NCBI GenBank assembly: GCA_034006985.1
Contig: JAVERT010000021.1
Location: 7,409-31,408, forward strand
Source of the DNA: Gudongella sp.
GTDB lineage: Bacteria; Bacillota; Clostridia; Tissierellales; Tissierellaceae
Direction: 5' to 3'
DNA: 24,000 nt
The notes under the pieces were generated by a model that worked only from the letters and a program-made list of their open reading frames with translations, was not told the DNA's origin and did no database searches. The position numbers and the translations under genes were made by a program. Shown here piece after piece: positions 2,419-15,426 of the stretch (the stretch's first letter is position 1; every line of letters begins with the position of its first letter).

Positions 2419-3423
2419 ATGATTAAGTTAGATAGTGTAACAAAGGAATTCTATACAACTGCTTCTCAAATTATAGCAGTAGATAAGGTATCTCTAAATA
2501 TTCAAAAAGCTGAAATCTATGGAATTATAGGCTTAAGTGGAGCTGGTAAATCAACCCTTATAAGATGTCTAAACAGACTAGAAGAACCCAGCTCTGGAAA
2601 GATTGTTATAGACAATGTAGATATAACATCTCTAGGTAAAGAAGATTTAAGAAATCAAAGGAAAGAAATTGGAATGATATTTCAACATTTCAACATCTTA
2701 GCACAAAAAACAGTATATGAAAATATTGCCTTCCCCCTCTACCTAGAAAAGTGGAGCAAAAAAGACATAGAATATCGAATAGAAGAACTTTTAACATTTG
2801 TAGAACTAGAAGACAAAAGAGATAGCTATCCCAGTCAACTAAGCGGAGGACAAAAACAAAGAGTTGCCATAGCTAGAGCGATTGCAAACAATCCAAAAGT
2901 CTTATTAAGCGATGAGGGAACTTCAGCACTAGATCCTCATACTACAAAATCTATATTAAAATTATTAAAGAAAATACGAGATGAGTTTGGATTGACAATA
3001 GTTATGATAACCCATCAAATGGAAGTGGTTAAACAAGTTTGTGACAAAGTAGCAATAATGGAAGATGGCAAAGTAATAGAAGAAAATACAGTGGAAAATT
3101 TATTTAAGAGTCCTAAAACAAAAATAGCTAAAGCCTTTATTTCATCTATAAATCCTAGCATAGATGAAGAAATACTAAATCCAAAAGACTTTAAAGGAAA
3201 GTTAATACGCTTAGCATTTATGGGAGAATCTTCAAAAAAACCTATAGTGTCCAGACTTATAAAAACCTTTGACATAGATGTAAATATATTATCGGGTTCT
3301 ATAGATACCTTGCAAGCAACAAATGTTGGGCATCTCATATTAGAATTAATAGGTGGAGAAAGAGAAGTAGTAAAAGTATTAAATTATTTAGAAAATGAAA
3401 ATGTAAATGTGGAGGTGATATAA
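2419..3423 (+). CDS. metN: Methionine ABC transporter ATP-binding protein
   Basis: GGAGG RBS. Walker A GLSGAGKST, signature LSGGQKQRVAIARA, Walker B LLSDEGTSALD. C-terminal NIL/ACT-like regulatory domain typical of MetN. Followed by metI and metQ. Confidence 0.93.
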   Translation: MIKLDSVTKEFYTTASQIIAVDKVSLNIQKAEIYGIIGLSGAGKSTLIRCLNRLEEPSSGKIVIDNVDITSLGKEDLRNQRKEIGMIFQHFNILAQKTVYENIAFPLYLEKWSKKDIEYRIEELLTFVELEDKRDSYPSQLSGGQKQRVAIARAIANNPKVLLSDEGTSALDPHTTKSILKLLKKIRDEFGLTIVMITHQMEVVKQVCDKVAIMEDGKVIEENTVENLFKSPKTKIAKAFISSINPSIDEEILNPKDFKGKLIRLAFMGESSKKPIVSRLIKTFDIDVNILSGSIDTLQATNVGHLILELIGGEREVVKVLNYLENENVNVEVI

Positions 3424-4064
3424 TGGCAGATTTAATTTTAACCCCAACCCTAGAAACTATATACATGGTTATTGCAGCTACTATTTTTTCCTTAACAATA
3501 GGATTTCCTCTTGGGATACTCTTAGTAGTAACAGAAAAAGGCAGTATCTGGGAAAAACCCTTTTTTAATAAGGTATTAAGTGGAATTATAAATGTATTGA
3601 GATCAATTCCCTTTATTATTCTAATGATTTTGGTTTTTCCCTTAGCTAAGATAATAGTAGGAAAATCTATAGGTACAACAGCTACCATAGTTCCACTTTC
3701 TATAGCTGCAGCTCCATTTGTAGCTAGGATTATGGAGTCTAGCATCAGAGAAATAGATAAGGGAGTAATTGAATCAAGCCTTGCAATGGGGGCTAGCGTA
3801 TGGCAGATCATTAGAAGGGTATTAATACCAGAATCACTACCCTCTATAATATCTGGAATAACTCTAACTATAATAAATTTGATAGGCTATTCTGCCATGG
3901 CAGGAGCTATAGGTGGTGGTGGACTAGGAAACTTAGCTATCAGATTTGGCCTATATAAGTTTGATACAAAAGTTATGCTAGTATCCCTAGCAATTATAAT
4001 AATTTTGGTTCAAGGAGTTCAGTTTATAGGAACTAGATTAACAATAATACTAGATAAAAGATAA
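3423..4064 (+). CDS. metI: Methionine ABC transporter permease
   Basis: The ATG overlaps the metN stop (TAATG). Multi-TM hydrophobic protein with a MetI-type EAA loop region (ESSLAMGASVWQIIRRVLIPE). Synteny metN-metI-metQ. Confidence 0.92.
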   Translation: MADLILTPTLETIYMVIAATIFSLTIGFPLGILLVVTEKGSIWEKPFFNKVLSGIINVLRSIPFIILMILVFPLAKIIVGKSIGTTATIVPLSIAAAPFVARIMESSIREIDKGVIESSLAMGASVWQIIRRVLIPESLPSIISGITLTIINLIGYSAMAGAIGGGGLGNLAIRFGLYKFDTKVMLVSLAIIIILVQGVQFIGTRLTIILDKR

Positions 4065-4092
4065 ATAACTAAAAAAATGGAGGAATAAAAAA

Positions 4093-4905
4093 ATGAAAAA
4101 AATATTATCAATAGCATTAGTAGTGGTATTATCCTTGTCTTTACTTACAGGATGCGGAGGGACATCAGATGTAAATGGTGATGCATCATCAATTATAATA
4201 GGTGTATCTTCAGAACCCCACGCAAGCCTAGTAGAACTAGTAGTTGAAGAATTAAAAGAAGAAGGAGTTGAAGTGCAAATAGTAGAATTTACTGACTATG
4301 TAACACCAAACACATCCTTAGATGATGGCGATATAGATGCAAACTTCTTTCAACACAAGCCCTATTTAGAAGATTTTGTAGAAAATCAAGGAATGAAATT
4401 AAAGTCTTTAGGGGGAGTGCATATAGAACCAATGGCTCTATACTCAACTAGCATAGCTTCAATAGAAGATTTAAAAGATGGAGCAGAAATATCTATACCA
4501 AATGACAATGTAAATGGAGGAAGAGCCCTATTGCTCTTAGAAGCCAATGGTCTTATTAAATTAAGTGCAGATGCAGGCCTAAATGCAACAGAAAAGGATA
4601 TAATAGAAAATCCTAAAAACTTAAAAATTAATCCACTTGAAGCAGCCTTTTTACCTAGAACTCTTGATGAAGTGGATGCAGCAATTATAAATGGTAATTA
4701 CGCCTTGGAAGCGGGTCTAAACCCAGTAAATGATGGCCTAATTATAGAAGATGCAGATTCTCCTTATGTGAATGTTGTAGTTGTAAGAGATGGTGAGGAA
4801 GATGAAGAAAAATTTACAAAACTTTTAAGTGCTCTTCAATCTGATAAAGTAAAAACTTATATAGAAGATAATTACAATGGTGGGGTTGTTGCGGCGTTTA
4901 ACTAG
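4093..4905 (+). CDS. metQ: MetQ/NlpA-family methionine-binding lipoprotein
   Basis: GGAGG RBS. Signal peptide with lipobox LLTGC. NlpA-family core including DANFFQHKPYLEDF. Confidence 0.9.
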   Translation: MKKILSIALVVVLSLSLLTGCGGTSDVNGDASSIIIGVSSEPHASLVELVVEELKEEGVEVQIVEFTDYVTPNTSLDDGDIDANFFQHKPYLEDFVENQGMKLKSLGGVHIEPMALYSTSIASIEDLKDGAEISIPNDNVNGGRALLLLEANGLIKLSADAGLNATEKDIIENPKNLKINPLEAAFLPRTLDEVDAAIINGNYALEAGLNPVNDGLIIEDADSPYVNVVVVRDGEEDEEKFTKLLSALQSDKVKTYIEDNYNGGVVAAFN

Positions 4906-4975: not shown

Positions 4976-5196
4976 ATAATTATACTTTCTACTAATCTTT
5001 AACTTTCTATTATTTTTAACTATAGGTACGCGAACATATTTTGTATACAACATATACCTTTTATCCCTTTAAAACAACATAGCAAACTAAGATAATCTAA
5101 GTGAAATAAACATTCTGTATAGATAATAGTAATAGGATATAATAGAAATATAGAGGCCAATACACAGTATAAATATATAAATACTGGAGGAATAAA

Positions 5197-5822
5197 ATGA
5201 TAAACAAAGAACTAATAAATATATAGAAGAGGAAATAATTCCACGTTATAAAAATAATGATAAAGCTCATAATGAAAACCATGTTAGATTCGTTATAAAA
5301 AACAGTATGCTAATTGCAGAAAACTATGATGTAGATAAAAACATCGTTTATACAGCTGCTGCCTATCATGATCTGGGCTTAGCAGTTGAAAGAGAGAGGC
5401 ATGAAATTTTCTCCAAAGAGATTATGCTAAAAGATAAGAAACTAGATGAATTTTTTAACAAGGAAGAAAAAGAAATAATAGCAGATGCTATACTTGCCCA
5501 TCGTGCTTCTGCTAAAGTTGAGCCAAAAACAATATACGGTAAAATAGTTGCTGATGCTGATAGAGATTTAGTGCCTATTCATATAATTGAAAGAACAGTA
5601 TTGTTTGGCTTGGATAAATATCCACAACTTGATAAAGAGGAACACTTTATAAGAGCTAAAGAGCATATTGAGACTAAATATGGAAAAGTAAGCTACATGA
5701 ATCTATGGTTAGACTTAAAGGTCAACAATGAAAGATTAGAAAAGCTTAGAAATATAATATATGATGAAAATAGGTTTAGAAGAATATTTGATTACTGTTT
5801 TGAAAAACATATAAAAAAATAA
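5197..5822 (+). pseudogene. HD-domain metal-dependent phosphohydrolase, 5' end disrupted by an apparent 1-nt frameshift (intact ORF only from 5307)
   Basis: GGAGG (5186-5190) plus ATG 5197 encodes MINKELINI and then stops at 5224-5226. The frame of the 5307..5822 ORF is open back to 5196 and reads ..KYIEEEIIPRYKNNDKAHNENHVRFVIKNS.. with no start codon. The HD motif (AAAYHDLG) and ADADRD lie downstream. Confidence 0.6.
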
Positions 5823-5830
5823 AAAAATAG

Positions 5831-5870
5831 AATCCTAATTTCAAACTAATAGTTTGAGAGTAGAGTTTTT
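5831..5870 (+). terminator. Intrinsic terminator after the HD gene (module copy 1)
   Basis: AATCCTAATTTCAAACT pairs with AGTTTGAGAGTAGAGTT (17 positions, 2 mismatches, some G-U) and is followed by TTTTT. Homologous to the hairpins at 8574 and 15492. Confidence 0.6.
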
Positions 5871-5890
5871 GAGTAACCCAGTACTAATAA

Positions 5891-5919
5891 TAGATAATGC
5901 AGTGGAAGTACGATATAAT
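5891..5919 (+). promoter_or_regulatory. Promoter (module copy 1) for the HTH/Doc/AbiJ-like unit
   Basis: TAGATA (5891-5896), 17 nt spacer, TATAAT (5914-5919). The 39-nt core is 33/39 identical to the copy upstream of hsdM. Confidence 0.55.
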
Positions 5920-5945
5920 AAATATGTCTGAATAAATAGATAATT
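5914..5945. repeat. Left copy of a 32-nt direct repeat (30/32 identical to 15616-15647)
   Basis: TATAATAAATATGTCTGAATAAATAGATAATT compared with TATAATAAATTTATCTGAATAAATAGATAATT. It covers the -10 box and the early leader. Confidence 0.85.
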
Positions 5946-6073
5946 TAATATTTATTTTGATGCTTATGAATAAATACAATAGAGTTAATTAAAAAGTTTA
6001 TGTAATATAAGTTACCTTTAGTAGGCTATGTTTGTATAGTGGTATTCTGTTTACAAGAATAGGAGGAAAAAGC

Positions 6074-7081
6074 ATGGGTGATTTAACACAATCTTTAATT
6101 TCAAGAAAAAATGTTCTAAATAATGACTATGCAGTTTTTGAAATTCAGGAGCAGTTAAAAGTAGAAGGAATTCTATATGATGATGAGGTGATTTTCACAA
6201 AGCAGCAGATAGCTAGTTATTTTGAAGTGGATACAAGAACAATTGAGCGCTATATGGATAGTAATCAAGAAGAACTTAAAGAAAATGGGTATAGAGTTCT
6301 GCGTGGAGAAGCATTGAAATCACTAAAAAAACAGTCTAAAATGCTATATGGTACCGACATTAATGTCGGTACCACTATATTAGGAATTTTTTCATTTAAG
6401 GCATTTTTAAATATGGCAATGATTATATCTGAAAGTGAAAAAGCCAAAGAGATTAGAAGTGCAATTTTAAATATAGTTATAGATGTTATTAATAAAAAAG
6501 CTGGTGGAAGCACTAAGTATATAAATCAAAGAGACGAAGATTTTTTAAATTCATGGTTTAGTGAGGAAAATTATAGAAAAGAATTTACGGATGCTTTAAA
6601 CTCTTATGTAGACATGGGGAATGTAAAGTATGCTATATACACAAATAGGATATATAAGGATATATTTAAAGAACATGCTCATGAATATAAGCACATTTTA
6701 AGGCTGAGTAACAATGATAGAATAAGAGATACAATGTATTCTGAGGTATTGGATTTAATAGCATCATATGAGGTTGGACTTGCTTATGAATTGAAAATAG
6801 GATTTGAACTAAAAGGTAGCAAACTTAAAAGTAGAGAAGTAGATGTAATCTTTAAAAAATTTCATGACCACCCAAGTAGAAAACCATTATTAGATAAAGC
6901 AAGAAATAAAATGGCAAGTAGAGATTTAGTCTTTAGAGATGCATTACACTTACAATTAGAAAATTATATAACACCTTTAGAGAAAGTTGAATATGAGAGA
7001 TTTCTAGGTGAAAAGAGTAAAGAACTTCAAGACAGGCTAAAAGAAGCTGAAGATGTATTTAAGAGACTAAAGGAGTATTAG
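6074..7081 (+). CDS. HTH / Bro-N (phage antirepressor)-like DNA-binding protein, 336 aa; putative partner of the downstream Doc
   Basis: AGGAGG (6061-6066) plus ATG 6074 is preferred over the TTG at 6032. HTH-like segment FTKQQIASYFEVDTRTIERYM. Antirepressor-like FSFKAFLNMAMIISESEKAKEIRSAILNIV. Its stop lies 1 nt before the Doc ATG. The family assignment (RhuM/Bro-N-like) is from memory only. Confidence 0.6.
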   Translation: MGDLTQSLISRKNVLNNDYAVFEIQEQLKVEGILYDDEVIFTKQQIASYFEVDTRTIERYMDSNQEELKENGYRVLRGEALKSLKKQSKMLYGTDINVGTTILGIFSFKAFLNMAMIISESEKAKEIRSAILNIVIDVINKKAGGSTKYINQRDEDFLNSWFSEENYRKEFTDALNSYVDMGNVKYAIYTNRIYKDIFKEHAHEYKHILRLSNNDRIRDTMYSEVLDLIASYEVGLAYELKIGFELKGSKLKSREVDVIFKKFHDHPSRKPLLDKARNKMASRDLVFRDALHLQLENYITPLEKVEYERFLGEKSKELQDRLKEAEDVFKRLKEY

Positions 7082-7082
7082 T

Positions 7083-7508
7083 ATGATATATCTAGATTAT
7101 GACATTCTGTATGATATATATTTAAATACTGTCGATGTTAGTGGGGGTGGAGCCAAGGGTGTTATAGACAAAGGAAAAGTAGAAGGTATATTAGAACAAG
7201 TTAAGAATGATATGTATTATCCAGAAATAGAAGACAAAGTAACATATTTATTCTTTTCTTTTAATAAATATCATTGTTTTCAAGATGGCAATAAAAGAAT
7301 TGCCTTATCGGCATGTGTTCAGTTTTTAAATTTTAATGGATATATTTATATGCTAAGTAGATTTATTAGGGAAATAGAAAATATAAGTATTCATGTAGCT
7401 TCTGGAAAGATTGATAAAGAATTACTAATAGAGATAATAGCATCATTAATTTATGAAGATGAATACTCTGAAGAATTGAAATTGAAAATTATTGATAATA
7501 CAATGTAA
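7083..7508 (+). CDS. doc: Death-on-curing (Doc) family toxin, Fic/DOC fold
   Basis: Fic/Doc catalytic motif HCFQDGNKR (nt 7272-7298, pattern HxFxDGNKR). Size of 141 aa. AGGAG RBS lies inside the end of the upstream gene, with a 1-nt gap between the stop and the ATG. Confidence 0.85.
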   Translation: MIYLDYDILYDIYLNTVDVSGGGAKGVIDKGKVEGILEQVKNDMYYPEIEDKVTYLFFSFNKYHCFQDGNKRIALSACVQFLNFNGYIYMLSRFIREIENISIHVASGKIDKELLIEIIASLIYEDEYSEELKLKIIDNTM

Positions 7509-7574
7509 AAAGGATTGGAATATGGATATAAAAGATGTTAGCAGAAATTTTTTATATGGAAAGGTGCGGTAAGC

Positions 7575-8486
7575 ATGTCTAAAACACAGACATATTCATA
7601 TAATTTATTAAAGTCAAAAGAGATTATGGCCATTTTAGATGGAGATACGGAATATGGAAATATTGAGATAAACGATGGCAAGGACATTAGAATTGCAATG
7701 CCTTACTTAAGTGGTCCAGATATTTGTAATATTTCCACACTATTTGGGATGCATGTTTCATATAATTGGGGAGGAGTAAATCTAAGCCGTTGGAATTATC
7801 TTGAAAATTTATTTATTTATTGCATGGAAAATGATAAAACTTCTGACTTGCTTGCTTATTTATTTTCTAAGGAACAATTTAGTAAGATGTTATCTGGATA
7901 CTCTGTTAATATTATTGAAGATTCTTACAAACACGTTACTCAAACAGTTATTAAGCAGATAAATGGTTTGTTATATTTTGGTGGAAATGAATTAGTTATA
8001 ATCGACAAGAAATTTGTTGTTAGAGAAATTGGAAGAAAAGTAGAAATTGAGGTACCAAAGATAAATTCTATAGATAGGGAATACATTAAAGATATTTCTA
8101 CCCGTGCAATGAATGATATTGAAAACGAGAATTATGATAGTGCTGTAACAAAATCAAGGACATTGTTAGAAGAGACATTTTGTTATGTAATAGAGAGAAA
8201 AAATGAAATCCCATCCAATGCTGGTGACATAGGGGCACTATACAAACAGGTGAAGGGTTTATATAATATGCATGGTGACAAAGACTTAGATAAACGAATT
8301 AACACACTATTATCCGGATTGGAAAAAATTATATCTTCAATCTCCGAAATGCGGAATAAAGATAGTGATGCACATGGTGTTGGAGCAAAACGTATTAGAA
8401 TCGATGAACACCATGCAAGACTTATAGTAAATTCTTCAATGACAATGGCAGATTTTATTTTGGCAGTGGAAAACAAAAACTACTAA
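7575..8486 (+). CDS. AbiJ-like abortive-infection protein with C-terminal HEPN (Abi_C) domain
   Basis: C-terminal region ..SAVTKSRTLLEETFCYVI..SEMRNKDSDAHG.. carries an R-x6-H HEPN-type motif (R at 8352-8354, H at 8373-8375). The N-terminal MPYLSGPDICNISTLFG resembles AbiJ N-terminal domains. Assignment is from memory. Confidence 0.65.
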   Translation: MSKTQTYSYNLLKSKEIMAILDGDTEYGNIEINDGKDIRIAMPYLSGPDICNISTLFGMHVSYNWGGVNLSRWNYLENLFIYCMENDKTSDLLAYLFSKEQFSKMLSGYSVNIIEDSYKHVTQTVIKQINGLLYFGGNELVIIDKKFVVREIGRKVEIEVPKINSIDREYIKDISTRAMNDIENENYDSAVTKSRTLLEETFCYVIERKNEIPSNAGDIGALYKQVKGLYNMHGDKDLDKRINTLLSGLEKIISSISEMRNKDSDAHGVGAKRIRIDEHHARLIVNSSMTMADFILAVENKNY

Positions 8487-8573
8487 AAGACCAGCTGCAA
8501 TGAGTTGAAAGAGAACTTAATTTTGAAAACACTTTAAGAGGGACATCGTATGATTAAGAATATAAAGATAAAA

Positions 8574-8616
8574 AATTCTATTTTCAGACTAGTCGTTTGA
8601 AAGTAGGATTTTTTAT
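8574..8616 (+). terminator. Intrinsic terminator after the AbiJ-like gene (module copy 2)
   Basis: A 16-bp stem, AATTCTATTTTCAGAC (8574-8589) with GTTTGAAAGTAGGATT (8595-8610), contains 3 G-U pairs. The loop is 5 nt, followed by TTTT. Confidence 0.7.
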
Positions 8617-8663
8617 TCTGAGCAAAATATTATCCATAGGCATTAAATAACCATATATACCAA

Positions 8664-8692
8664 TAGATAATAAAAAGGAAGTAGGATATAAT
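8664..8692 (+). promoter_or_regulatory. Promoter (module copy 2) for the hsdMSR operon
   Basis: TAGATA (8664-8669), 17 nt spacer, TATAAT (8687-8692). It lies about 60 nt upstream of the hsdM ATG. Confidence 0.55.
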
Positions 8693-8751
8693 AAAAATGT
8701 ATATAAATTAACAGAAGAATTTTAAATTATTATAAATCTGGAGGAAGATAG

Positions 8752-10263
8752 ATGGGGAAATTGACTTTACAGACTTTGGAAACGAAATTATGGGATTGTG
8801 CTGATATTTTAAGGGGAACTCTTTCTTCAACTCAATATATGGATTACATATTTGGGATGTTATTTCTTAAGAGAATTAACGATCAATTTGAGATGGAAAG
8901 AAAAGAGAAAAAGACGAAGTTTGCAAAACTTCCAGCCGAAGCGCTTGAAAAAGAGCTAGAGAATGCAAAAGCATTTAAGACATTCTTTATTCCATCAAAA
9001 GCTAGATGGGATAATTTTAAAGACCTTAATTTAAATATAGGAGCAGAGCTTGATAAGGCATTTAAGGCTATAGAAGATGAGCCCAAAAATGCTGAACTTG
9101 TTGGAGTGCTTACAACTGCAAATTACAATGATAAAGAAAGAGTGCCAGATGGCAAACTAAATCAGTTGATTCAAATATTTGATAAGCTAGATTTATCAAA
9201 CGAGAATTTAGAATCTCCAGATATTCTTGGGGATGCATATATGTATCTTATCAAGATGTTTGCAGATGATGGTGGGACTAAGGGGGGAGAATTTTATACT
9301 CCAAAAGAAATTAAAGAAACCATGGTAAAACTATTAAAGCCTCAAGAAGCTATGTCAATATATGATCCCTGTGCTGGTTCTGGCGGGTTTCTAATTAGCG
9401 CTATTGAGTATATAAAAGAAAATGGTGGTAATCATAGAAATCTTCAAATATATGGTCAAGAGATAAACTTATCCACCTGGGCAATTGCTAAACTAAATAT
9501 GCTCCTTCACGATGTATCGGGAGCGACAATTTGGAAAGGTGATACAATAAGAGATCCTAAAAATACAGAAGGAGCAACTCTAAAGACATTTGATATGGTG
9601 CTAAGCAATCCTCCTTTTTCACTTAAAAACTGGGGGAAAGAAGTTGCGGAGAAAAATGAATTTAATAGATTTAATTACGGTATTGCACCTACTTCATATG
9701 GAGATCTTGCATTTGTTCAACATATGCTAGCATCTACTAATTCAAAGGGGATAATGGCTACTGTAGTTCCTCATGGCATCCTTTTTAGAGGAGGAGCTGA
9801 AGGTAGAATTAGACAAGGTTTATTAGAAGATGACCTATTTGAAGCGGTTATTGGTTTCCCACAAAATTTATTTTACGGGGCATCTATTCCTGCATCTGTA
9901 ATTATATTAAATAAAAACAAAAGTGAAGATAAAAAAGGGAAAGTATTATTTATTGAAGCCTCAGATGGTTTTATTAAAGATGGAAATAAGAATAGATTAA
10001 GAACTCAAGATATAGAAAAAATAGTAAGTACATATGATAATTTTAAAGATATAGAAAAATTTGCTAAGGTTGTAGAAATCCAAGAGATTAAAAACAACGA
10101 CTATAATTTAAATATAACCAGATATGTAGACACCTCAGAAGAAGAGGAAGAAATAGATATAAAAGAAGTAATTGCTAGAATTTCTCAAAGAGAAGAAGAA
10201 TTAGAAGAATCAAGAGAAAAGATAAATACATTCCTTCAGCAACTTGGCTTTGAAAGGATTTAG
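8752..10263 (+). CDS. hsdM: Type I restriction-modification system, N6-adenine DNA methyltransferase subunit M
   Basis: HsdM N-terminal helix domain (LWDCADILRG). SAM motif I DPCAGSGGF. Catalytic motif IV NPPF (LSNPPFSL). Followed by hsdS and hsdR. Confidence 0.95.
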   Translation: MGKLTLQTLETKLWDCADILRGTLSSTQYMDYIFGMLFLKRINDQFEMERKEKKTKFAKLPAEALEKELENAKAFKTFFIPSKARWDNFKDLNLNIGAELDKAFKAIEDEPKNAELVGVLTTANYNDKERVPDGKLNQLIQIFDKLDLSNENLESPDILGDAYMYLIKMFADDGGTKGGEFYTPKEIKETMVKLLKPQEAMSIYDPCAGSGGFLISAIEYIKENGGNHRNLQIYGQEINLSTWAIAKLNMLLHDVSGATIWKGDTIRDPKNTEGATLKTFDMVLSNPPFSLKNWGKEVAEKNEFNRFNYGIAPTSYGDLAFVQHMLASTNSKGIMATVVPHGILFRGGAEGRIRQGLLEDDLFEAVIGFPQNLFYGASIPASVIILNKNKSEDKKGKVLFIEASDGFIKDGNKNRLRTQDIEKIVSTYDNFKDIEKFAKVVEIQEIKNNDYNLNITRYVDTSEEEEEIDIKEVIARISQREEELEESREKINTFLQQLGFERI

Positions 10264-11490
10264 GTGGATGGGATGAATAAAAATAGGGATGGATATAAAG
10301 AGACGGAAGTGGGATGGATACCTGAGGATTGGGAAGTAACTAGCATTGGTGATGTAGCTAACTTTCAAGGAGGATTTGCTTTTAAAAGCACTGACTATCA
10401 AGTAGAAGGTACAAAATTATTAAAAATAGCTAATGTTCAGCAGAATAGATTAATATGGAGAGATATTAATTATTTGCCCTCAGATTACTTAGAAAAACAT
10501 TCTGATTTTAGCATTTCGGTGGGTGATGTAATAATCGCAATGACAAGACCAATAATCTCTACTGGAATAAAGGTGTGTAAAGCAAAAGAAATAGATATAC
10601 CATGCTTATTGAATCAAAGGGTTGGTAGATTTATAATCAAAGGGGACCTATCAAATGAGTATCTCTATCAAAGTTGCTTTACAAGATTCTTCACAGAAAA
10701 TGTAAAAAACCTTTCAAACACCACTGGTCAGCCTAATATTAGTTCTGGGCAAATAGAGTCTATAAAAATTCCTATTCCACAACTAAAAGAACAACAAGGC
10801 ATAGCAGAAATCCTATCTACAACCGATAATCATATTGAGAAGCTAGATAAGATTATTGAAGATTATCAGCTTCTTAAAAAAGGGATGATGCAAAAGCTTT
10901 TAACTCAAGGTATTGGTCATAGAGAATTTAAAGATACTGAGATTGGAAGGATACCGAAGGAGTGGGAAGTTAAGAAGTTTTATGATTTATTTAAAGTTAC
11001 AAGTGGTTCTTCTTTATCCCAAAAAAATATTGTTGAAGGGTCGTATCCAGTATATGGTGGCAATGGCGTTAATGGATATCACAATGAATATGAATTTGAA
11101 GAATCAAAATTAGTAATTGGTCGCGTAGGAGCATATTGTGGATGTATTCACAGAACAACTCCGAGGTCATGGATAACAGATAATGCTTTATATATAAAAG
11201 AAAAGAAATATGATTATAATGATGATTTTATGTATTATAAACTGGTATATATTGATTTGAATAAGTATGCTAATCAAAATGCTCAACCAGTAATTTCGGG
11301 AGAAAAGATATATCCATTAGTAATTGGGCTCCCAAGTGTTGAAGAACAAAAACAAATAGCTGATATCCTATCATTAATAGATATTAGAATAGAAAACCTA
11401 CAACAACAACGCACCAACTTTACCCAACTTAAAAAAGCCCTAATGGAACAACTGCTTACAGGAAAAATACGAACTATAGATAACAACTGA
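10264..11490 (+). CDS. hsdS: Type I restriction-modification specificity subunit S
   Basis: Two target-recognition domains, each introduced by GWIPEDWEV or GRIPKEWEV. Two conserved coiled-coil regions (LKEQQGIAEIL.. and VEEQKQIADIL..LLTGKIR). The start is GTG 10264, directly after the hsdM stop, or alternatively ATG 10273. Confidence 0.92.
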   Translation: MDGMNKNRDGYKETEVGWIPEDWEVTSIGDVANFQGGFAFKSTDYQVEGTKLLKIANVQQNRLIWRDINYLPSDYLEKHSDFSISVGDVIIAMTRPIISTGIKVCKAKEIDIPCLLNQRVGRFIIKGDLSNEYLYQSCFTRFFTENVKNLSNTTGQPNISSGQIESIKIPIPQLKEQQGIAEILSTTDNHIEKLDKIIEDYQLLKKGMMQKLLTQGIGHREFKDTEIGRIPKEWEVKKFYDLFKVTSGSSLSQKNIVEGSYPVYGGNGVNGYHNEYEFEESKLVIGRVGAYCGCIHRTTPRSWITDNALYIKEKKYDYNDDFMYYKLVYIDLNKYANQNAQPVISGEKIYPLVIGLPSVEEQKQIADILSLIDIRIENLQQQRTNFTQLKKALMEQLLTGKIRTIDNN

Positions 11491-11503
11491 TAGGAGGAAT
11501 TAT

Positions 11504-14500
11504 ATGGCTGGTCTGGGAAATGAATTTACTTTAGTTGAAAAAGCTGCTTTAGACTATCTTGTTGATATTCTAGGCTATACATATATTGAAGCTTCAAAGC
11601 TGACTCCTTCATTTGGTGAAAGGGAGTCTTTTCGTGATGTTATTTTAATTAATAGACTTAGGACTGTTATCAAAAGACTTAACCCTTGGATAAATGATGA
11701 ATCCTTGGGAACTGCTCTCAAGTTCTTGGTTAACAGTGAATCATTGGGGACTTCATTACTTGAAATTAACGAGCGAATATATAAGGCTATAGTAGATTTG
11801 GATTTTACTGTTTCCCAATCCATTGATGGACAGAAAAAACCTCAGACAGTTCGATTTATAGATTTTGACAATATCGACAATAATGAGTTTATTGTAACAA
11901 ATCAATATCAGGTTCAAGGGATTAATGCTACAATTTATCCTGATATAGTGCTTTTTATAAACGGTATTCCTCTTGTAGTTATAGAAGCGAAATCACCTTT
12001 TAAAGAAGGAGGACTCTTTATAAAGGCTGGGAAAAAGGATGCCTTTGATCAGCTTCAAAGGTATATGGATATCAGAGAAGGTGCTATCTTTGAAGGGGCT
12101 GAAAGACTCTTCCATACAAACTTTATACTTGGAATAATAAATAAATACCATGCCTATTGTGGGACTATCTCCTCGACCTATGATTATTTCTTAGAGTGGA
12201 AGGACCCATATCCATTTAAAAAAGAGGAGATAGAAGATATTGAAAATAATGGACAAAACTTATTTTTCCAAGGTGTCTTAGAAAAAAACAACCTACTTAA
12301 GATAATGCAGTTTTTTATTCTATTTGAAACTGATGGAGATAGGAGAATTAAAAAACTTGCACGCTACCAACAATTCAGAGCTTGTATAAAAGCATTTAAA
12401 AGAATTCAAGAAGGCAAAACTCCACTTGAACGAGGTGGGGTTATTTGGCATACCCAAGGTTCTGGCAAATCTTTATCTATGGTTATGCTTGCAAGGATGA
12501 TTAGAAGAACTCCTTCTTTAAGAGATACTATGCTAGTTGTAATCACAGATAGGGTTGACCTTGATAAACAAATCTATTCGACTTTTTCAAGGGTATTTCC
12601 ATCTGAGTATACTTTGGCTGAAAATAACCTGGATAAGATTTTAACCAGAGCTGAAAGTGTGGAAGAGATGAAAACTCTGCTTAGCGGTGGCCAAGCTAAA
12701 ATTATTTGTACAACTATCCAAAAATTCCAATGCGAATCTGACAATCAAGCAATATTAAGTGATGAAAAAACAGAACTTAAGTTATTTTTTGATAAAGAGA
12801 TTGAAGTTCTAACCAATAAATCTAATGTTATAGTTTTTACAGATGAAGCTCATAGAAGTCAGTATTCAAATCTTTCTATGAATATGAGAAAGACTCTACC
12901 GAATGCTACATTCATCGGATTTACTGGTACGCCAATTGAGAAAGATGATAAGTCTACATATAGAACTTTTGGTCAACTTATAGATAGTTATACCATTTCC
13001 CAAGCAGTTGCTGATGGAAATACAGTAGCTATAATATATGAGGGAAGAAGACAAGACCTTCATATTATCCAAGATGAGCTTGATGAAGACTTCCATAAAT
13101 ACTTTGACAATAAATCTGATGATGAAAAAGAAGCTATCAAATTAAGGTATTTTAATAAGATTGCACTTGCCGAGGCTGAAGACAGGGTGGATGATATTGC
13201 AAAGGATATTCTAATCCACTATAGGGACAATAGTTATAAGCTTGGCTTTAAGGCTCAGGTTGTTTGTGTTTCAAGGCATGCATGTGTAAAATACTACGAT
13301 GCATTTATAAAACATATGGCAGATGTATTCGGGGATAATCCTATTGAAATAAAAGTAGTTTATTCAGCTGATAATAATGATCTTCCATATATAAAAGAAC
13401 ATAGAAGCTCAAAGGGCGAGCAAGATACTATTCTTAGTCGATTTAAAAGAGAAATTGAAAAGGATAGGCTTTGTATTCTAATAGTTAAGGATATGCTCTT
13501 AACTGGATTTGATGCAAAGATTGAAGATGTGATGTATCTTGATAGACCTCTTAAGGAGCATACTTTACTTCAGGCTATAGCAAGAGTTAATAGAACCTAC
13601 GATAAACCATATAAAGTGGTTGAAGATGGTGAGGAAATTGAAAAGTCTAGGACCAAGGCATATGGAAGGGTTGTAGATTACTTTGGAATTACAAGACATT
13701 TAGAAGAGGCACTTAAGGTATTTGACAATGCAGATATTCAGGAGCCAATGGCCAGTATAGATAGTCTTTTTAATAAGATGCTTGATTATAAAGAGGCGGT
13801 TATGAGGATTTTTGCGGGGGTAGACAAACGGGATTTAGATGCACTTATGAATGTATTAAAAGCTGAAAATAAACGAGTGGAATTTGATATGGCATATAGA
13901 AGGTTTGCAATTGCTCTTAATGCTTTAATGCCAACCCACGTTCGAAAAATGGATTTGGATGATTTAAAATGGTTATCCTATATACGGGCTGCAGCAAAGG
14001 TTAGATTTGAGCCTGAAAATGCTATTGATATTTCTGATTGTGGAGAAAAAGCAAAAGAACTTATCTCAGAGCATCTTAAATCCAATGGGGTTTATCAGTG
14101 GATTCAACCTGTTACCCTATTTGACAATGATTTTTCTGATAAAATAAATCATGGTTCAGATGAAGCGATTGCTTCAACTATGGAGCATGCAATTAAGCAT
14201 GCAATAAATGTAAAGATGAAAGATAACCCAGTACATTATCAGTCACTTTTTGAAAGACTTCAAAAGATACTTGAAGAAACAAATATGAATTGGGAAGAGA
14301 GAAGAAAGCAACTAAAAGAGTTTGTTGAAAGAGAGTTTAAAAATAGCGAAGCTGATTTAACCAAAGAACTTGGATTTAAAGAAAAAAGGCAACTTGCAAT
14401 ATTTGAAATGATTAAAGCAGAGATACAAAATAAAAAGGTTGCTGATGGACATATATATTATGCAGGTGATGATGAAAATACTGTATTTAAAGATATAACG

Positions 14501-14716
14501 TATGCAGTAATCGAAACTATAAAGGATAATTGGGTTGTTGGCTTTACCCAAAACCCTACTCGTATAAATGAGATGGAGCAGGCTATACATTCAAAGCTTC
14601 TTCTTAATTATTATGATGATATTGGAGATTATGATAAGATTGGGAAACTGACATCTAGAATTATTGAGCTTGCTAAGATTCATTATTATAAGAACGATTG
14701 GAGCAATAAGAAATGA
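11504..14716 (+). CDS. hsdR: Type I restriction endonuclease subunit R (SF2 helicase/translocase plus PD-(D/E)xK nuclease)
   Basis: AGGAGG RBS. N-terminal nuclease motif PDIVLFINGIPLVVIEAKS. Walker A HTQGSGKS. DEAH box FTDEAHRSQ. Helicase motif VI QAIARVNR. Length 1070 aa. Confidence 0.95.
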   Translation: MAGLGNEFTLVEKAALDYLVDILGYTYIEASKLTPSFGERESFRDVILINRLRTVIKRLNPWINDESLGTALKFLVNSESLGTSLLEINERIYKAIVDLDFTVSQSIDGQKKPQTVRFIDFDNIDNNEFIVTNQYQVQGINATIYPDIVLFINGIPLVVIEAKSPFKEGGLFIKAGKKDAFDQLQRYMDIREGAIFEGAERLFHTNFILGIINKYHAYCGTISSTYDYFLEWKDPYPFKKEEIEDIENNGQNLFFQGVLEKNNLLKIMQFFILFETDGDRRIKKLARYQQFRACIKAFKRIQEGKTPLERGGVIWHTQGSGKSLSMVMLARMIRRTPSLRDTMLVVITDRVDLDKQIYSTFSRVFPSEYTLAENNLDKILTRAESVEEMKTLLSGGQAKIICTTIQKFQCESDNQAILSDEKTELKLFFDKEIEVLTNKSNVIVFTDEAHRSQYSNLSMNMRKTLPNATFIGFTGTPIEKDDKSTYRTFGQLIDSYTISQAVADGNTVAIIYEGRRQDLHIIQDELDEDFHKYFDNKSDDEKEAIKLRYFNKIALAEAEDRVDDIAKDILIHYRDNSYKLGFKAQVVCVSRHACVKYYDAFIKHMADVFGDNPIEIKVVYSADNNDLPYIKEHRSSKGEQDTILSRFKREIEKDRLCILIVKDMLLTGFDAKIEDVMYLDRPLKEHTLLQAIARVNRTYDKPYKVVEDGEEIEKSRTKAYGRVVDYFGITRHLEEALKVFDNADIQEPMASIDSLFNKMLDYKEAVMRIFAGVDKRDLDALMNVLKAENKRVEFDMAYRRFAIALNALMPTHVRKMDLDDLKWLSYIRAAAKVRFEPENAIDISDCGEKAKELISEHLKSNGVYQWIQPVTLFDNDFSDKINHGSDEAIASTMEHAIKHAINVKMKDNPVHYQSLFERLQKILEETNMNWEERRKQLKEFVEREFKNSEADLTKELGFKEKRQLAIFEMIKAEIQNKKVADGHIYYAGDDENTVFKDITYAVIETIKDNWVVGFTQNPTRINEMEQAIHSKLLLNYYDDIGDYDKIGKLTSRIIELAKIHYYKNDWSNKK

Positions 14717-15426
14717 AATTAAGCTATGAATATGGGACACAAACCATAGAATTCGAGGTAATATTTAGAAAAAGAAAGACCATGGCAATTCAGATACAGC
14801 CACCAGATATAGTTACTGTAATTTCCCCTAAAGGTGTAAAAGAAGACGAAATATTAAAAGCAGTTAAGACTAAATCAAAATGGATTACTCAAAAGCTATT
14901 TCAAATTAGAGAAATGGAGTATCTAAAAAGGAATAGAGAATATGTTAATGGAGAGAGTTTTGTTTATATGGGAAGAAACTACTCACTACAAATTATTATT
15001 GATGAATCTTACAAAGTTCCTGAAGCTAAGTTATTTAGAGGAAAGTTTTATGTATATACCCATTCAACGGATGCAGATACTATAAGGAGGGCGCTAGAGA
15101 AATGGTATAAAAAAAAGGCCCTGCAAAAAGTTTTGGAAAGAATCGATTATTACCAAAAATATTTTGATGTATCACCAAATAAGGTAATGATAAAAGAACA
15201 GAAAAAAAGATGGGGATCTTGCAGTAGTCATAGAAATCTCTACTTTAACTGGAAGTGTATTATGGCACCATCTCCAGTTCTTGATTATCTTGTGGTTCAT
15301 GAAATGAGTCATATGGTTCATATGAACCATTCTCCAGAGTTTTGGAACTTGGTGAGGAGTATCATACCAGATTATGAGGAGAGAAGAAAATTGCTTAAAA
15401 ACCAAGGGGTTAAATACGATTTATAG
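14713..15426 (+). CDS. DUF45/YgjP-like (M48/SprT-like) zinc metallopeptidase
   Basis: HExxH motif HEMSH (15298-15312) within VVHEMSHMVHMNHSPEFW. The ATG overlaps the hsdR stop (ATGA at 14713-14716). Size of 237 aa is typical of the YgjP family. Confidence 0.8.
   Translation: MKLSYEYGTQTIEFEVIFRKRKTMAIQIQPPDIVTVISPKGVKEDEILKAVKTKSKWITQKLFQIREMEYLKRNREYVNGESFVYMGRNYSLQIIIDESYKVPEAKLFRGKFYVYTHSTDADTIRRALEKWYKKKALQKVLERIDYYQKYFDVSPNKVMIKEQKKRWGSCSSHRNLYFNWKCIMAPSPVLDYLVVHEMSHMVHMNHSPEFWNLVRSIIPDYEERRKLLKNQGVKYDL

Follow-up and report, generated by a model that had tools for sequence, protein, structure and literature searches.

Layout of the three-gene segment

The window analysed here is a 24,000-nucleotide (nt) stretch of Gudongella sp. 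DNA (contig JAVERT010000021.1, positions 7,409 to 31,408 of the forward strand). At 5.9–8.6 kb, upstream of a type I restriction-modification (R-M) operon, it carries three genes that we call A, B and C and that an initial annotation, made from the sequence without database searches, had proposed as a composite defence module. Gene A (6074–7081, forward strand, ATG start, TAG stop) encodes a 335-residue protein, gene B (7083–7508, forward strand, ATG start) a 141-residue Doc-family toxin with the Fic fold, and gene C (7575–8486, forward strand) a 303-residue AbiJ-family HEPN protein. The initial annotation offered two options, a sensor with two effectors or a toxin-antitoxin (TA) pair plus an independent Abi gene, and it is between these that the data below discriminate. 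The arrangement it gave is borne out by the coordinates, with three co-directional genes, a 1-nt gap between A and B (A ends at 7081, B starts at 7083) and a 66-nt spacer between B and C (7508 to 7575). The length of A needed correction. The mechanical open reading frame (ORF) starts at TTG 6032, and we place the start at ATG 6074 because an AGGAGG at 6062–6067 lies 7 nt before it and homologues begin at the same M-x-DLT; the protein is therefore 335 residues long and not 336 as first stated, while its description as a large DNA-binding protein holds as a prediction from its sequence.

Upstream of A lies a promoter-like element (5889–5927, forward strand) in which TAGATA-17-TATAAT at 5891–5919 agrees with the consensus at 10/12 positions. 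This match is by itself weak evidence, since such matches are no commoner than in shuffles (34 found vs 27.9 ± 6.0). The element is, however, the first copy of a 39-nt direct repeat whose second copy (8662–8700, forward strand, with TAGATA-17-TATAAT at 8664–8692) precedes hsdM; the copies are 85% identical, and a 33-nt degenerate pattern built from both matches only 5890–5922 and 8663–8695, with 0 matches in shuffles. The promoter first suggested at 5891–5919 thus stands above chance because the element covering it recurs before hsdM, and not on the strength of its consensus. A third copy of the −10 region (TAGGATATAATAGAAATATA) is present at 5133–5152, upstream of the HD-domain gene that precedes A, and a further promoter-like site at 7476–7504 lies ahead of C.

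At the other end of the segment, an AT-rich inverted repeat after C (8567–8617, forward strand) folds into a hairpin of 23 pairs with a U-run in its 3′ arm. At −23.8 kcal/mol (z = −6.45) it is matched in stability by 0/200 shuffles, and it is probably an intrinsic terminator closing the A-B-C unit, in agreement with the terminator originally marked at 8574–8616. A terminator scan reported nothing for the unit; the scan requires at least 3 G-C pairs and missed this hairpin because it is AT-rich. No hairpin occurs between B and C, so co-transcription is plausible, and from the sequence A-B-C as one transcription unit is plausible but unproven. A mechanical ORF list (minimum 20 residues) of the unit and both flanks contained no plausible small antitoxin gene, as had been noted at the outset, and Rfam matched nothing in the unit, the 150-nt leader of A included. 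The GC content of the trio region is 27–29%, compared with 31–37% across the rest of the window.

The hairpin also has a counterpart. A weaker hairpin after the HD-domain gene (5829–5868, forward strand, −11.1 kcal/mol, z = −2.67) is its first copy, and the core at 5839–5863 matches 8582–8606, with 0 such matches in shuffles. Direct copies of one module, about 100 nt long and made up of hairpin and promoter-like site, thus flank the trio at 5820–5930 and 8565–8705. The closest R-M relatives show no conserved copy of it upstream of hsdM, and on this ground we rejected the idea that it is the native promoter of the R-M operon. An insertion scar, the trace of a cassette exchange or a shared operator might each account for it.

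Identities of the encoded proteins

Gene B is above cut-off against both Pfam Fic (PF02661; 37.5 bits, cut-off 24) and TIGR01550 (DOC_P1; 44.4 bits, cut-off 38.65), aligns to the P1 Doc structures 3k33, 3dd7 and 3kh2 (E ~1e-7) and matches the PADLOC model PDC-M59B over nearly its full length (E = 9.3e-37); the PADLOC SoFic model gave no match. Its motif, H64-CFQDGNK-R72, encoded at 7272–7298, is of the Doc type HxFx(D/E)(G/A)NKR, with a lysine where AMPylating Fic proteins have the second glycine, and H[CS]FxDGNKR is kept in 71/71 B homologues. We therefore read B as a Doc-type Fic-fold enzyme and a predicted protein kinase, which upholds the earlier identification of a Doc toxin from HCFQDGNKR. 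RefSeq names the two members of the pair 'DNA-binding protein' (A) and 'type II toxin-antitoxin system death-on-curing family toxin' (B).

The assignment of C as an AbiJ-like HEPN protein holds equally well. The protein scores 76.4 bits against Pfam Abi_C (PF14355; cut-off 24) and matches PADLOC AbiJ with residues 7–302 over model positions 4–280 of 281 (E = 1.5e-85). Its other PADLOC matches are to Cas11a and mad2 only, with none to a PDC-M59 model, and the Pfam AbiJ_NTD3/4/5 models do not match its N-domain. The HEPN motif R260-NKDSDA-H267 (R-x6-H, encoded at 8352–8375) lies within an RNxxSDxHG that is kept in 120/120 homologues. An AlphaFold2 (AF2) model with a mean predicted local distance difference test score (pLDDT) of 78.9 has an α+β N-domain (residues 1–155) and a helical C-terminal HEPN domain (168–301), and its best PDB matches are the HEPN proteins 1o3u, 1ufb, 4nqf, 1wol and 2hsb (probability 0.97–1.0, target TM-score 0.56–0.70, E = 0.1–1).

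Gene A was the least readily placed of the three. It is identical to an NCBI entry named 'DNA-binding protein [Gudongella sp.]' and matches PADLOC PDC-M59A with residues 1–334 over model positions 1–334 of 338 (E = 5.1e-100). Against Pfam ORF6N (PF10543) it scores 22.5 bits where the gathering cut-off is 27.8; sub-threshold ORF6N matches were seen in 30/58 members of the A family (best E = 2.7e-5). The Virulence_RhuM and Bro-N models gave no match at E ≤ 0.1 in any of the 58, and hhalign of the A profile against a Bro-N-containing Fic fusion protein (locus L073, below) returned a probability of 0.6%, so the Bro-N/RhuM label first attached to A is not supported. The sole remaining link to Bro-N/PDC-S13-Fic fusions is a short stretch, residues 153–226, that matches PADLOC PDC-S13 (E = 1e-6). 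The AF2 model (mean pLDDT 73.8) has a winged-helix-like N-domain (about residues 1–120), whose helices and β-hairpin are consistent with a winged helix, and a helical region (122–334). No Pfam model covers residues 120–335, and A has no solved structure. Residues 284–334 have low pLDDT yet are among the most conserved parts of the family.

The A family is both widespread and compact. More than 6120 homologues at 55–86% identity are spread over phyla, and A is 55–60% identical between Firmicutes, Planctomycetota, Desulfobacterota and others; 63 columns are invariant in a 58-sequence alignment spanning many phyla, and clustering of 1.84 billion proteins at 50% leaves about 20 full-length representatives. 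Neither Pfam nor NCBIfam gives a Phd, YefM, AbrB or MazE match for A. Three further likenesses were tried and rejected. For a Phd-like Doc-binding helix at the C-terminus, comparison of the last 53 residues with all PDB chains returned insignificant coiled-coil-type matches (best E = 0.35), none of them Phd. A PDB profile match of residues 205–281 to the MNDA pyrin domain (E = 0.005) was not reproduced by Foldseek and is treated as chance. Foldseek also aligned the modelled structure of A with Deinococcus DdrC (E = 7e-4, TM-score 0.29/0.42, root-mean-square deviation 16 Å), but too weakly to be of use; at best, the modelled A and DdrC may share a winged helix and a helical bundle.

Among the 150 best cluster representatives of A, none is fused to Doc. 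The only fusion among them is P0243 (639 residues), an A homologue with an N-terminal C5 DNA methyltransferase-like domain (GLRVLDLFSGIGG...), which may be a true fusion or a gene-calling read-through and again ties the A family to DNA modification.

Gene neighbourhoods and the restriction-modification locus

We examined the surroundings of A in a sample built with one genome per species. At least 593 confirmed relatives were found in this way, so the A-B pair occurs in at least 593 species-representative genomes, and 80 loci from many phyla were kept. The next gene after A, in the same orientation, encodes Doc in 78/80 of them, or 78/79 that can be evaluated: of the two exceptions, L008 is at a contig end and L071 (8001–9442) has a NUDIX hydrolase gene in the place of Doc. 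The pair is also present in 8/8 loci of the closest A relatives (73–86% identity), in Ilyobacter pILYOP01 and in a Streptococcus satellite phage, and the spacing between the alignment ends of A and B is 4–20 nt in 63/71 loci. A and B are thus an obligate, translationally coupled pair. They have the generic features of type II TA modules, namely an adjacent, co-directional and conserved pair in which the upstream gene is tightly coupled to the toxin gene.

The pair recurs next to R-M genes. A type III methyltransferase gene is directly upstream of A-B in 11/65 loci and a type III restriction endonuclease gene directly downstream in 8/58; type I subunits and SNF2/DUF4391 sets also adjoin it, and it is often nested in R-M operons with gaps of 2–30 nt to the R-M genes. 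On plasmids it is rare (1 full-length match in 72,556 records). Other surroundings were noted as well. In Clostridia, A-B is often directly downstream of a SPOUT methyltransferase gene (PF02590), as in L081, L083, L085, L086 and L088 (A at about 6642–8014). We take this gene for rlmH, which in S. aureus marks the neighbourhood where SCCmec/sadR integrate; three of these loci have the pair bordering phage-like DNA. Among Streptococcus satellite phages (Javan742 and others; L097:4001–5457) A-B lies next to the integrase gene and is annotated 'CiaB protein'. At L073:4034–5794, a gene just downstream of A-B encodes a 586-residue protein with Bro-N, a PADLOC PDC-S13 region and a SoFic-like Fic domain, so that two different Fic/Doc modules are stacked in one locus.

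The neighbours of C behave differently. In a C-seeded sample of 80 loci from metagenome contigs, 63 have 3 kb or more of DNA ahead of C, and in 37 of these type I hsd genes lie upstream; the count is a lower bound, given the low sensitivity of tblastn with a single query set. C homologues usually come right after hsdR, and the relatives inspected individually agree; others follow type III-like R-M genes or sit in other islands. Their neighbours vary, with R-M genes the sole recurrent context. C is an autonomous single-gene AbiJ without a fixed partner.

In these samples the two modules are hardly ever found together. AbiJ is present in 0/80 A-seeded loci (tblastn and phmmer) and 0/8 close relatives, or 0/88 in all. 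Conversely, A-B is present in 3/80 C-seeded loci (L139, L144 and L150), and these count as one independent element because they are 97–98% identical in nucleotide sequence. In this element (L139:1352–6888, from a gut metagenome) the order is hsdS-A-B-hsdR-C in one operon, with hsdR separating A-B from AbiJ. The meeting of A-B and AbiJ, non-adjacent, in a second lineage is the pattern expected of two modules independently attracted to R-M loci. A neighbourhood search seeded on A thus finds the pair conserved and the trio not, C being independent, and the proposal of a sensor with two effectors as a fixed trio fails on 0/88 A-seeded loci and on a single, non-contiguous element among 80 C-seeded ones. 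It is the fallback of the initial annotation, a TA pair plus an independent Abi gene, that the neighbourhood data favour.

The R-M operon beside the three genes (8752–15426, forward strand) comprises hsdM, hsdS, hsdR and a gene for a YgjP-like metallopeptidase. As the initial annotation had proposed, it is a type I system, and it is complete, with hsdM, hsdS and hsdR all present and intact. The hsdM gene (8752–10263, forward strand, 503 residues) matches Pfam N6_Mtase/HsdM_N, and hsdS (10264–11490, forward strand, 408 residues) matches Methylase_S with two target-recognition domains. The hsdR gene (11504–14716, forward strand, 1070 residues) was identified from its translation and from the same layout in relatives with HSDR_N/SWI2_SNF2 domains; the last gene (14713–15426, forward strand) matches Pfam YgjP-like. 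The nearest relatives (HsdM 84–86% identical) keep the layout hsdM-hsdS-hsdR-YgjP-like, and the YgjP-like gene closes every one of them. What varies is the additional cargo. A complete cyclic oligonucleotide-based antiphage signalling system (CBASS) operon (SMODS, E1/E2, JAB, Cap15) is directly upstream of hsdM in L181 (2181–5864) and L182 (266–1297), two genes of no assigned family are upstream of hsdM in L180 (449–2611), and a pEK499_p136-type HEPN gene lies between hsdS and hsdR in L179 (7149–7589). Because relatives carry other cargo and the trio region is lower in GC, we regard the position of A-B-C as a variable slot for defence cargo.

Upstream of the segment the window holds further features. 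At 57–2030 it encodes a 657-residue coiled-coil protein with the C-terminal region of an ABC/SMC-type ATPase and matches to Rad50, LmuB and mad3, of which the ATPase ones cover the C-terminal part only; it may be a distal portion of a Lamassu/MADS-like gene, split or truncated, that starts outside the window. A T-box leader (2107–2360; Rfam RF00230, 111.7 bits) precedes an ABC transporter operon (2419–4905; ATPase, permease and lipoprotein-like binding protein) that looks methionine-type. The product of the HD-domain gene at 5307–5822 (171 residues) aligns from position 14 of Pfam HD and from position 40 of PRK10119 onwards, and the gene may be truncated at its 5′ end.

Known systems and alternative readings

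The nearest relatives of the A-B pair among known systems are Phd-Doc of phage P1 and the PADLOC entry PDC-M59. Like Phd-Doc, the pair combines a Fic-fold protein bearing the Doc motif with an upstream, translationally coupled partner gene. Unlike Phd, which is small (about 73 residues) and labile, the partner here is a 335-residue ORF6N-like DNA-binding protein that is 55–60% identical across phyla, and A-B thus lacks the small upstream antitoxin of Phd-Doc. A and B match PDC-M59A and PDC-M59B nearly full length. PDC-M59 comes from Payne et al. 2024 (bioRxiv 10.1101/2024.01.29.577857), where 145 'phage defence candidates' are drawn from genes embedded in bacteriophage exclusion (BREX), defence island system associated with restriction-modification (DISARM) and type I R-M loci, so that it too was found through such embedding. 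As tabulated there, PDC-M59 is a three-family cassette, FAM_01085>>FAM_00079>>FAM_00939 (46 occurrences in Table S8), whereas C matches AbiJ only among these models. Since C has no PDC-M59 match, of the three families the window has only those of A and B, and PADLOC detected no PDC-M59C either in 58 downstream neighbours or in a selection of 10 small downstream genes. Across the profile searches, then, A and B go to PDC-M59A/B and C to AbiJ.

C shares with AbiJ (Abi-859) of Lactococcus lactis and SadR of Staphylococcus aureus the Abi_C/HEPN domain, the R-x6-H motif, the architecture of an N-terminal plus a HEPN domain and, through its homologues, the habit of being a single gene appended to R-M loci. 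It differs in giving no AbiJ_NTD3/4/5 match and in its position, upstream of hsdM behind a Doc pair, where most sampled relatives are directly after hsdR. AbiJ of Lactococcus is a single-gene system whose mechanism is not known (PMC13064643), and SadR is reported to be an RNase (PMC13590631). Anantharaman et al. 2013 (PMC3710099) classed AbiJ as a HEPN family with solos in R-M operons, and they described neighbourhoods of R-M, a HEPN protein and a DOC toxin as three-level defence; there the HEPN partner is of the RloC/PrrC-type ABC-HEPN kind, in contrast to the AbiJ found here. The initial annotation had known of no such arrangement as a described system, and with regard to its parts that no longer holds, given PDC-M59A/B and these neighbourhoods. 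Toxin-type modules nested in or abutting R-M operons as layered defence are also known from PrrC-EcoprrI and from DarTG2 in enteropathogenic Escherichia coli (PMC12255303), although the modules here are upstream of hsdM and not between hsd genes. A DNA-binding or phage-regulator-type domain combined with Fic/Doc in defence contexts is a feature of RhuM(COG3943)-Doc and Bro-N/PDC-S13-Fic fusions and of SoFic single-gene defence as well (PMC1626090). The likeness ends there: A has no RhuM/Bro-N match, B no SoFic match, and the comparison of A with the L073 protein was not significant.

These observations support the notion that the three genes are probably two separate, catalogued defence-type modules that adjoin each other in a defence island of the ordinary kind, rather than a new three-gene system. 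What the locus would hold is a stack of independent defences, with a Doc kinase restrained by A, an independent AbiJ RNase and the R-M system. The toxicity of B, its neutralisation by A, the RNase activity of C and any phage defence phenotype are predictions. Doc kinase acts on EF-Tu by phosphorylation (Castro-Roa 2013, as cited in PMC13645617), and B, by its homology with P1 Doc, would do the same and stop translation. A, which is encoded first and never far from B, would hold B inactive and bind DNA through its ORF6N-like N-domain, and the conserved, low-confidence C-terminal 50 residues are the best candidate for the segment that folds on B. Loss of A, or the sensing of an infection cue by A, would release B to halt translation, with abortive infection or post-segregational killing as the outcome. 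C would act alone, its N-domain sensing phage infection and its HEPN domain cleaving RNA. One promoter may drive both modules in this genome, and their juxtaposition would be an accident of island assembly, both families being drawn independently to R-M loci.

Several points weigh against reading the locus in this way. The two samples of 80 loci are best-scoring subsets and not random ones. The activities of A-B are predicted, and the PDC entries of PADLOC are candidates. Table S8 of Payne et al. marks FAM_01085>>FAM_00079 (414 occurrences) 'Reject'; the family numbers it shares with PDC-M59 and the names of the A and B models lead us to infer that this two-family cassette is the A-B pair, and its curators probably saw no defence candidate in the pair by itself. 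A is also atypical for an antitoxin, with its 335 residues, 55–60% identity across phyla and about 20 clusters, and its C-terminus has no Phd-like similarity, so it may have a role other than neutralising B. Finally, A-B and C may yet cooperate, since they are possibly co-transcribed here and a second locus has both modules in one R-M operon.

Of the alternatives, the one that survives best concerns the purpose of the pair. A-B would be a classical addiction module, stabilising mobile islands and R-M operons by post-segregational killing, and only AbiJ and R-M would be true defences. Its gene order, antitoxin first with tight coupling, is that of a type II TA module, the RefSeq name of B says as much, and the cassette was rejected as a defence candidate in the table of Payne et al. 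The pair also borders mobile elements (beside rlmH with phage-like genes following, beside the integrase gene of Streptococcus satellite phages) and lies within prophage-like DNA in Ilyobacter. However, A-B is often inside R-M operons with gaps of only 2–30 nt, a position typical of defence cargo such as PrrC or DarTG2 (PMC12255303), and it is rare on plasmids. Addiction and defence are, moreover, not mutually exclusive, and we hold addiction as the whole account to be unlikely.

That A is long, compact as a family and highly identical across phyla leaves room for a role as sensor. A-B alone would then be a widespread anti-phage system in which A gates the Doc kinase, and the shared promoter would couple that kinase to the AbiJ RNase; we consider this combination rather unlikely. 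If it were true, A might respond to DNA ends, to nicks or to the state of the adjacent restriction enzyme, and the coupling to AbiJ would shut down translation at both the protein and the RNA level.

A related proposal is that A-B guards restriction enzymes as PrrC does with EcoprrI, Doc being kept latent by A and/or the R-M complex and unleashed by a phage anti-restriction factor. Many loci do have A-B between mod and res or between hsdS and hsdR, P0243 joins an A homologue to a C5 DNA methyltransferase, and Anantharaman et al. proposed multi-level coupling of R-M, HEPN and Doc (PMC3710099). Most sampled A-B loci, however, have no R-M gene adjoining the pair, and partners of types I, III and IIG-like argue against a specific protein-protein partnership; we consider this guard role very unlikely.

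That A, B and C are one integrated system, in which A senses infection and controls both the Doc kinase and the AbiJ HEPN RNase, is barely credible: the genes do share one strand without a B/C hairpin between one promoter-like site and one strong hairpin, three-gene cassettes of the A and B families with a third exist in the PDC-M59 tabulation, and A-B and AbiJ share a second, independent R-M locus (L139), but the proposal is largely refuted by the neighbourhood data (0/88), since C matches no PDC-M59 model and has its own promoter-like site ahead of it, hsdR stands between A-B and AbiJ in L139, AbiJ homologues are found by themselves, whether behind hsdR, behind type III-like R-M genes or in other islands, and AbiJ works as a single gene in Lactococcus (PMC13064643).

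Two separate modules beside an R-M operon make this locus a clean example of a defence island whose adjoining genes resemble one system but are not. The slot beside this R-M operon family holds CBASS, HEPN genes or the present genes, depending on the genome. The residual interest lies in the A-Doc pair, whose A is conserved across phyla and, for two thirds of its length, is covered by no Pfam model. Control of a Doc kinase by a 335-residue DNA-binding protein, if shown, would be a regulatory logic new to Fic/Doc toxins, and showing it would also settle whether the cassette rejected by the PADLOC curators is a defence system.

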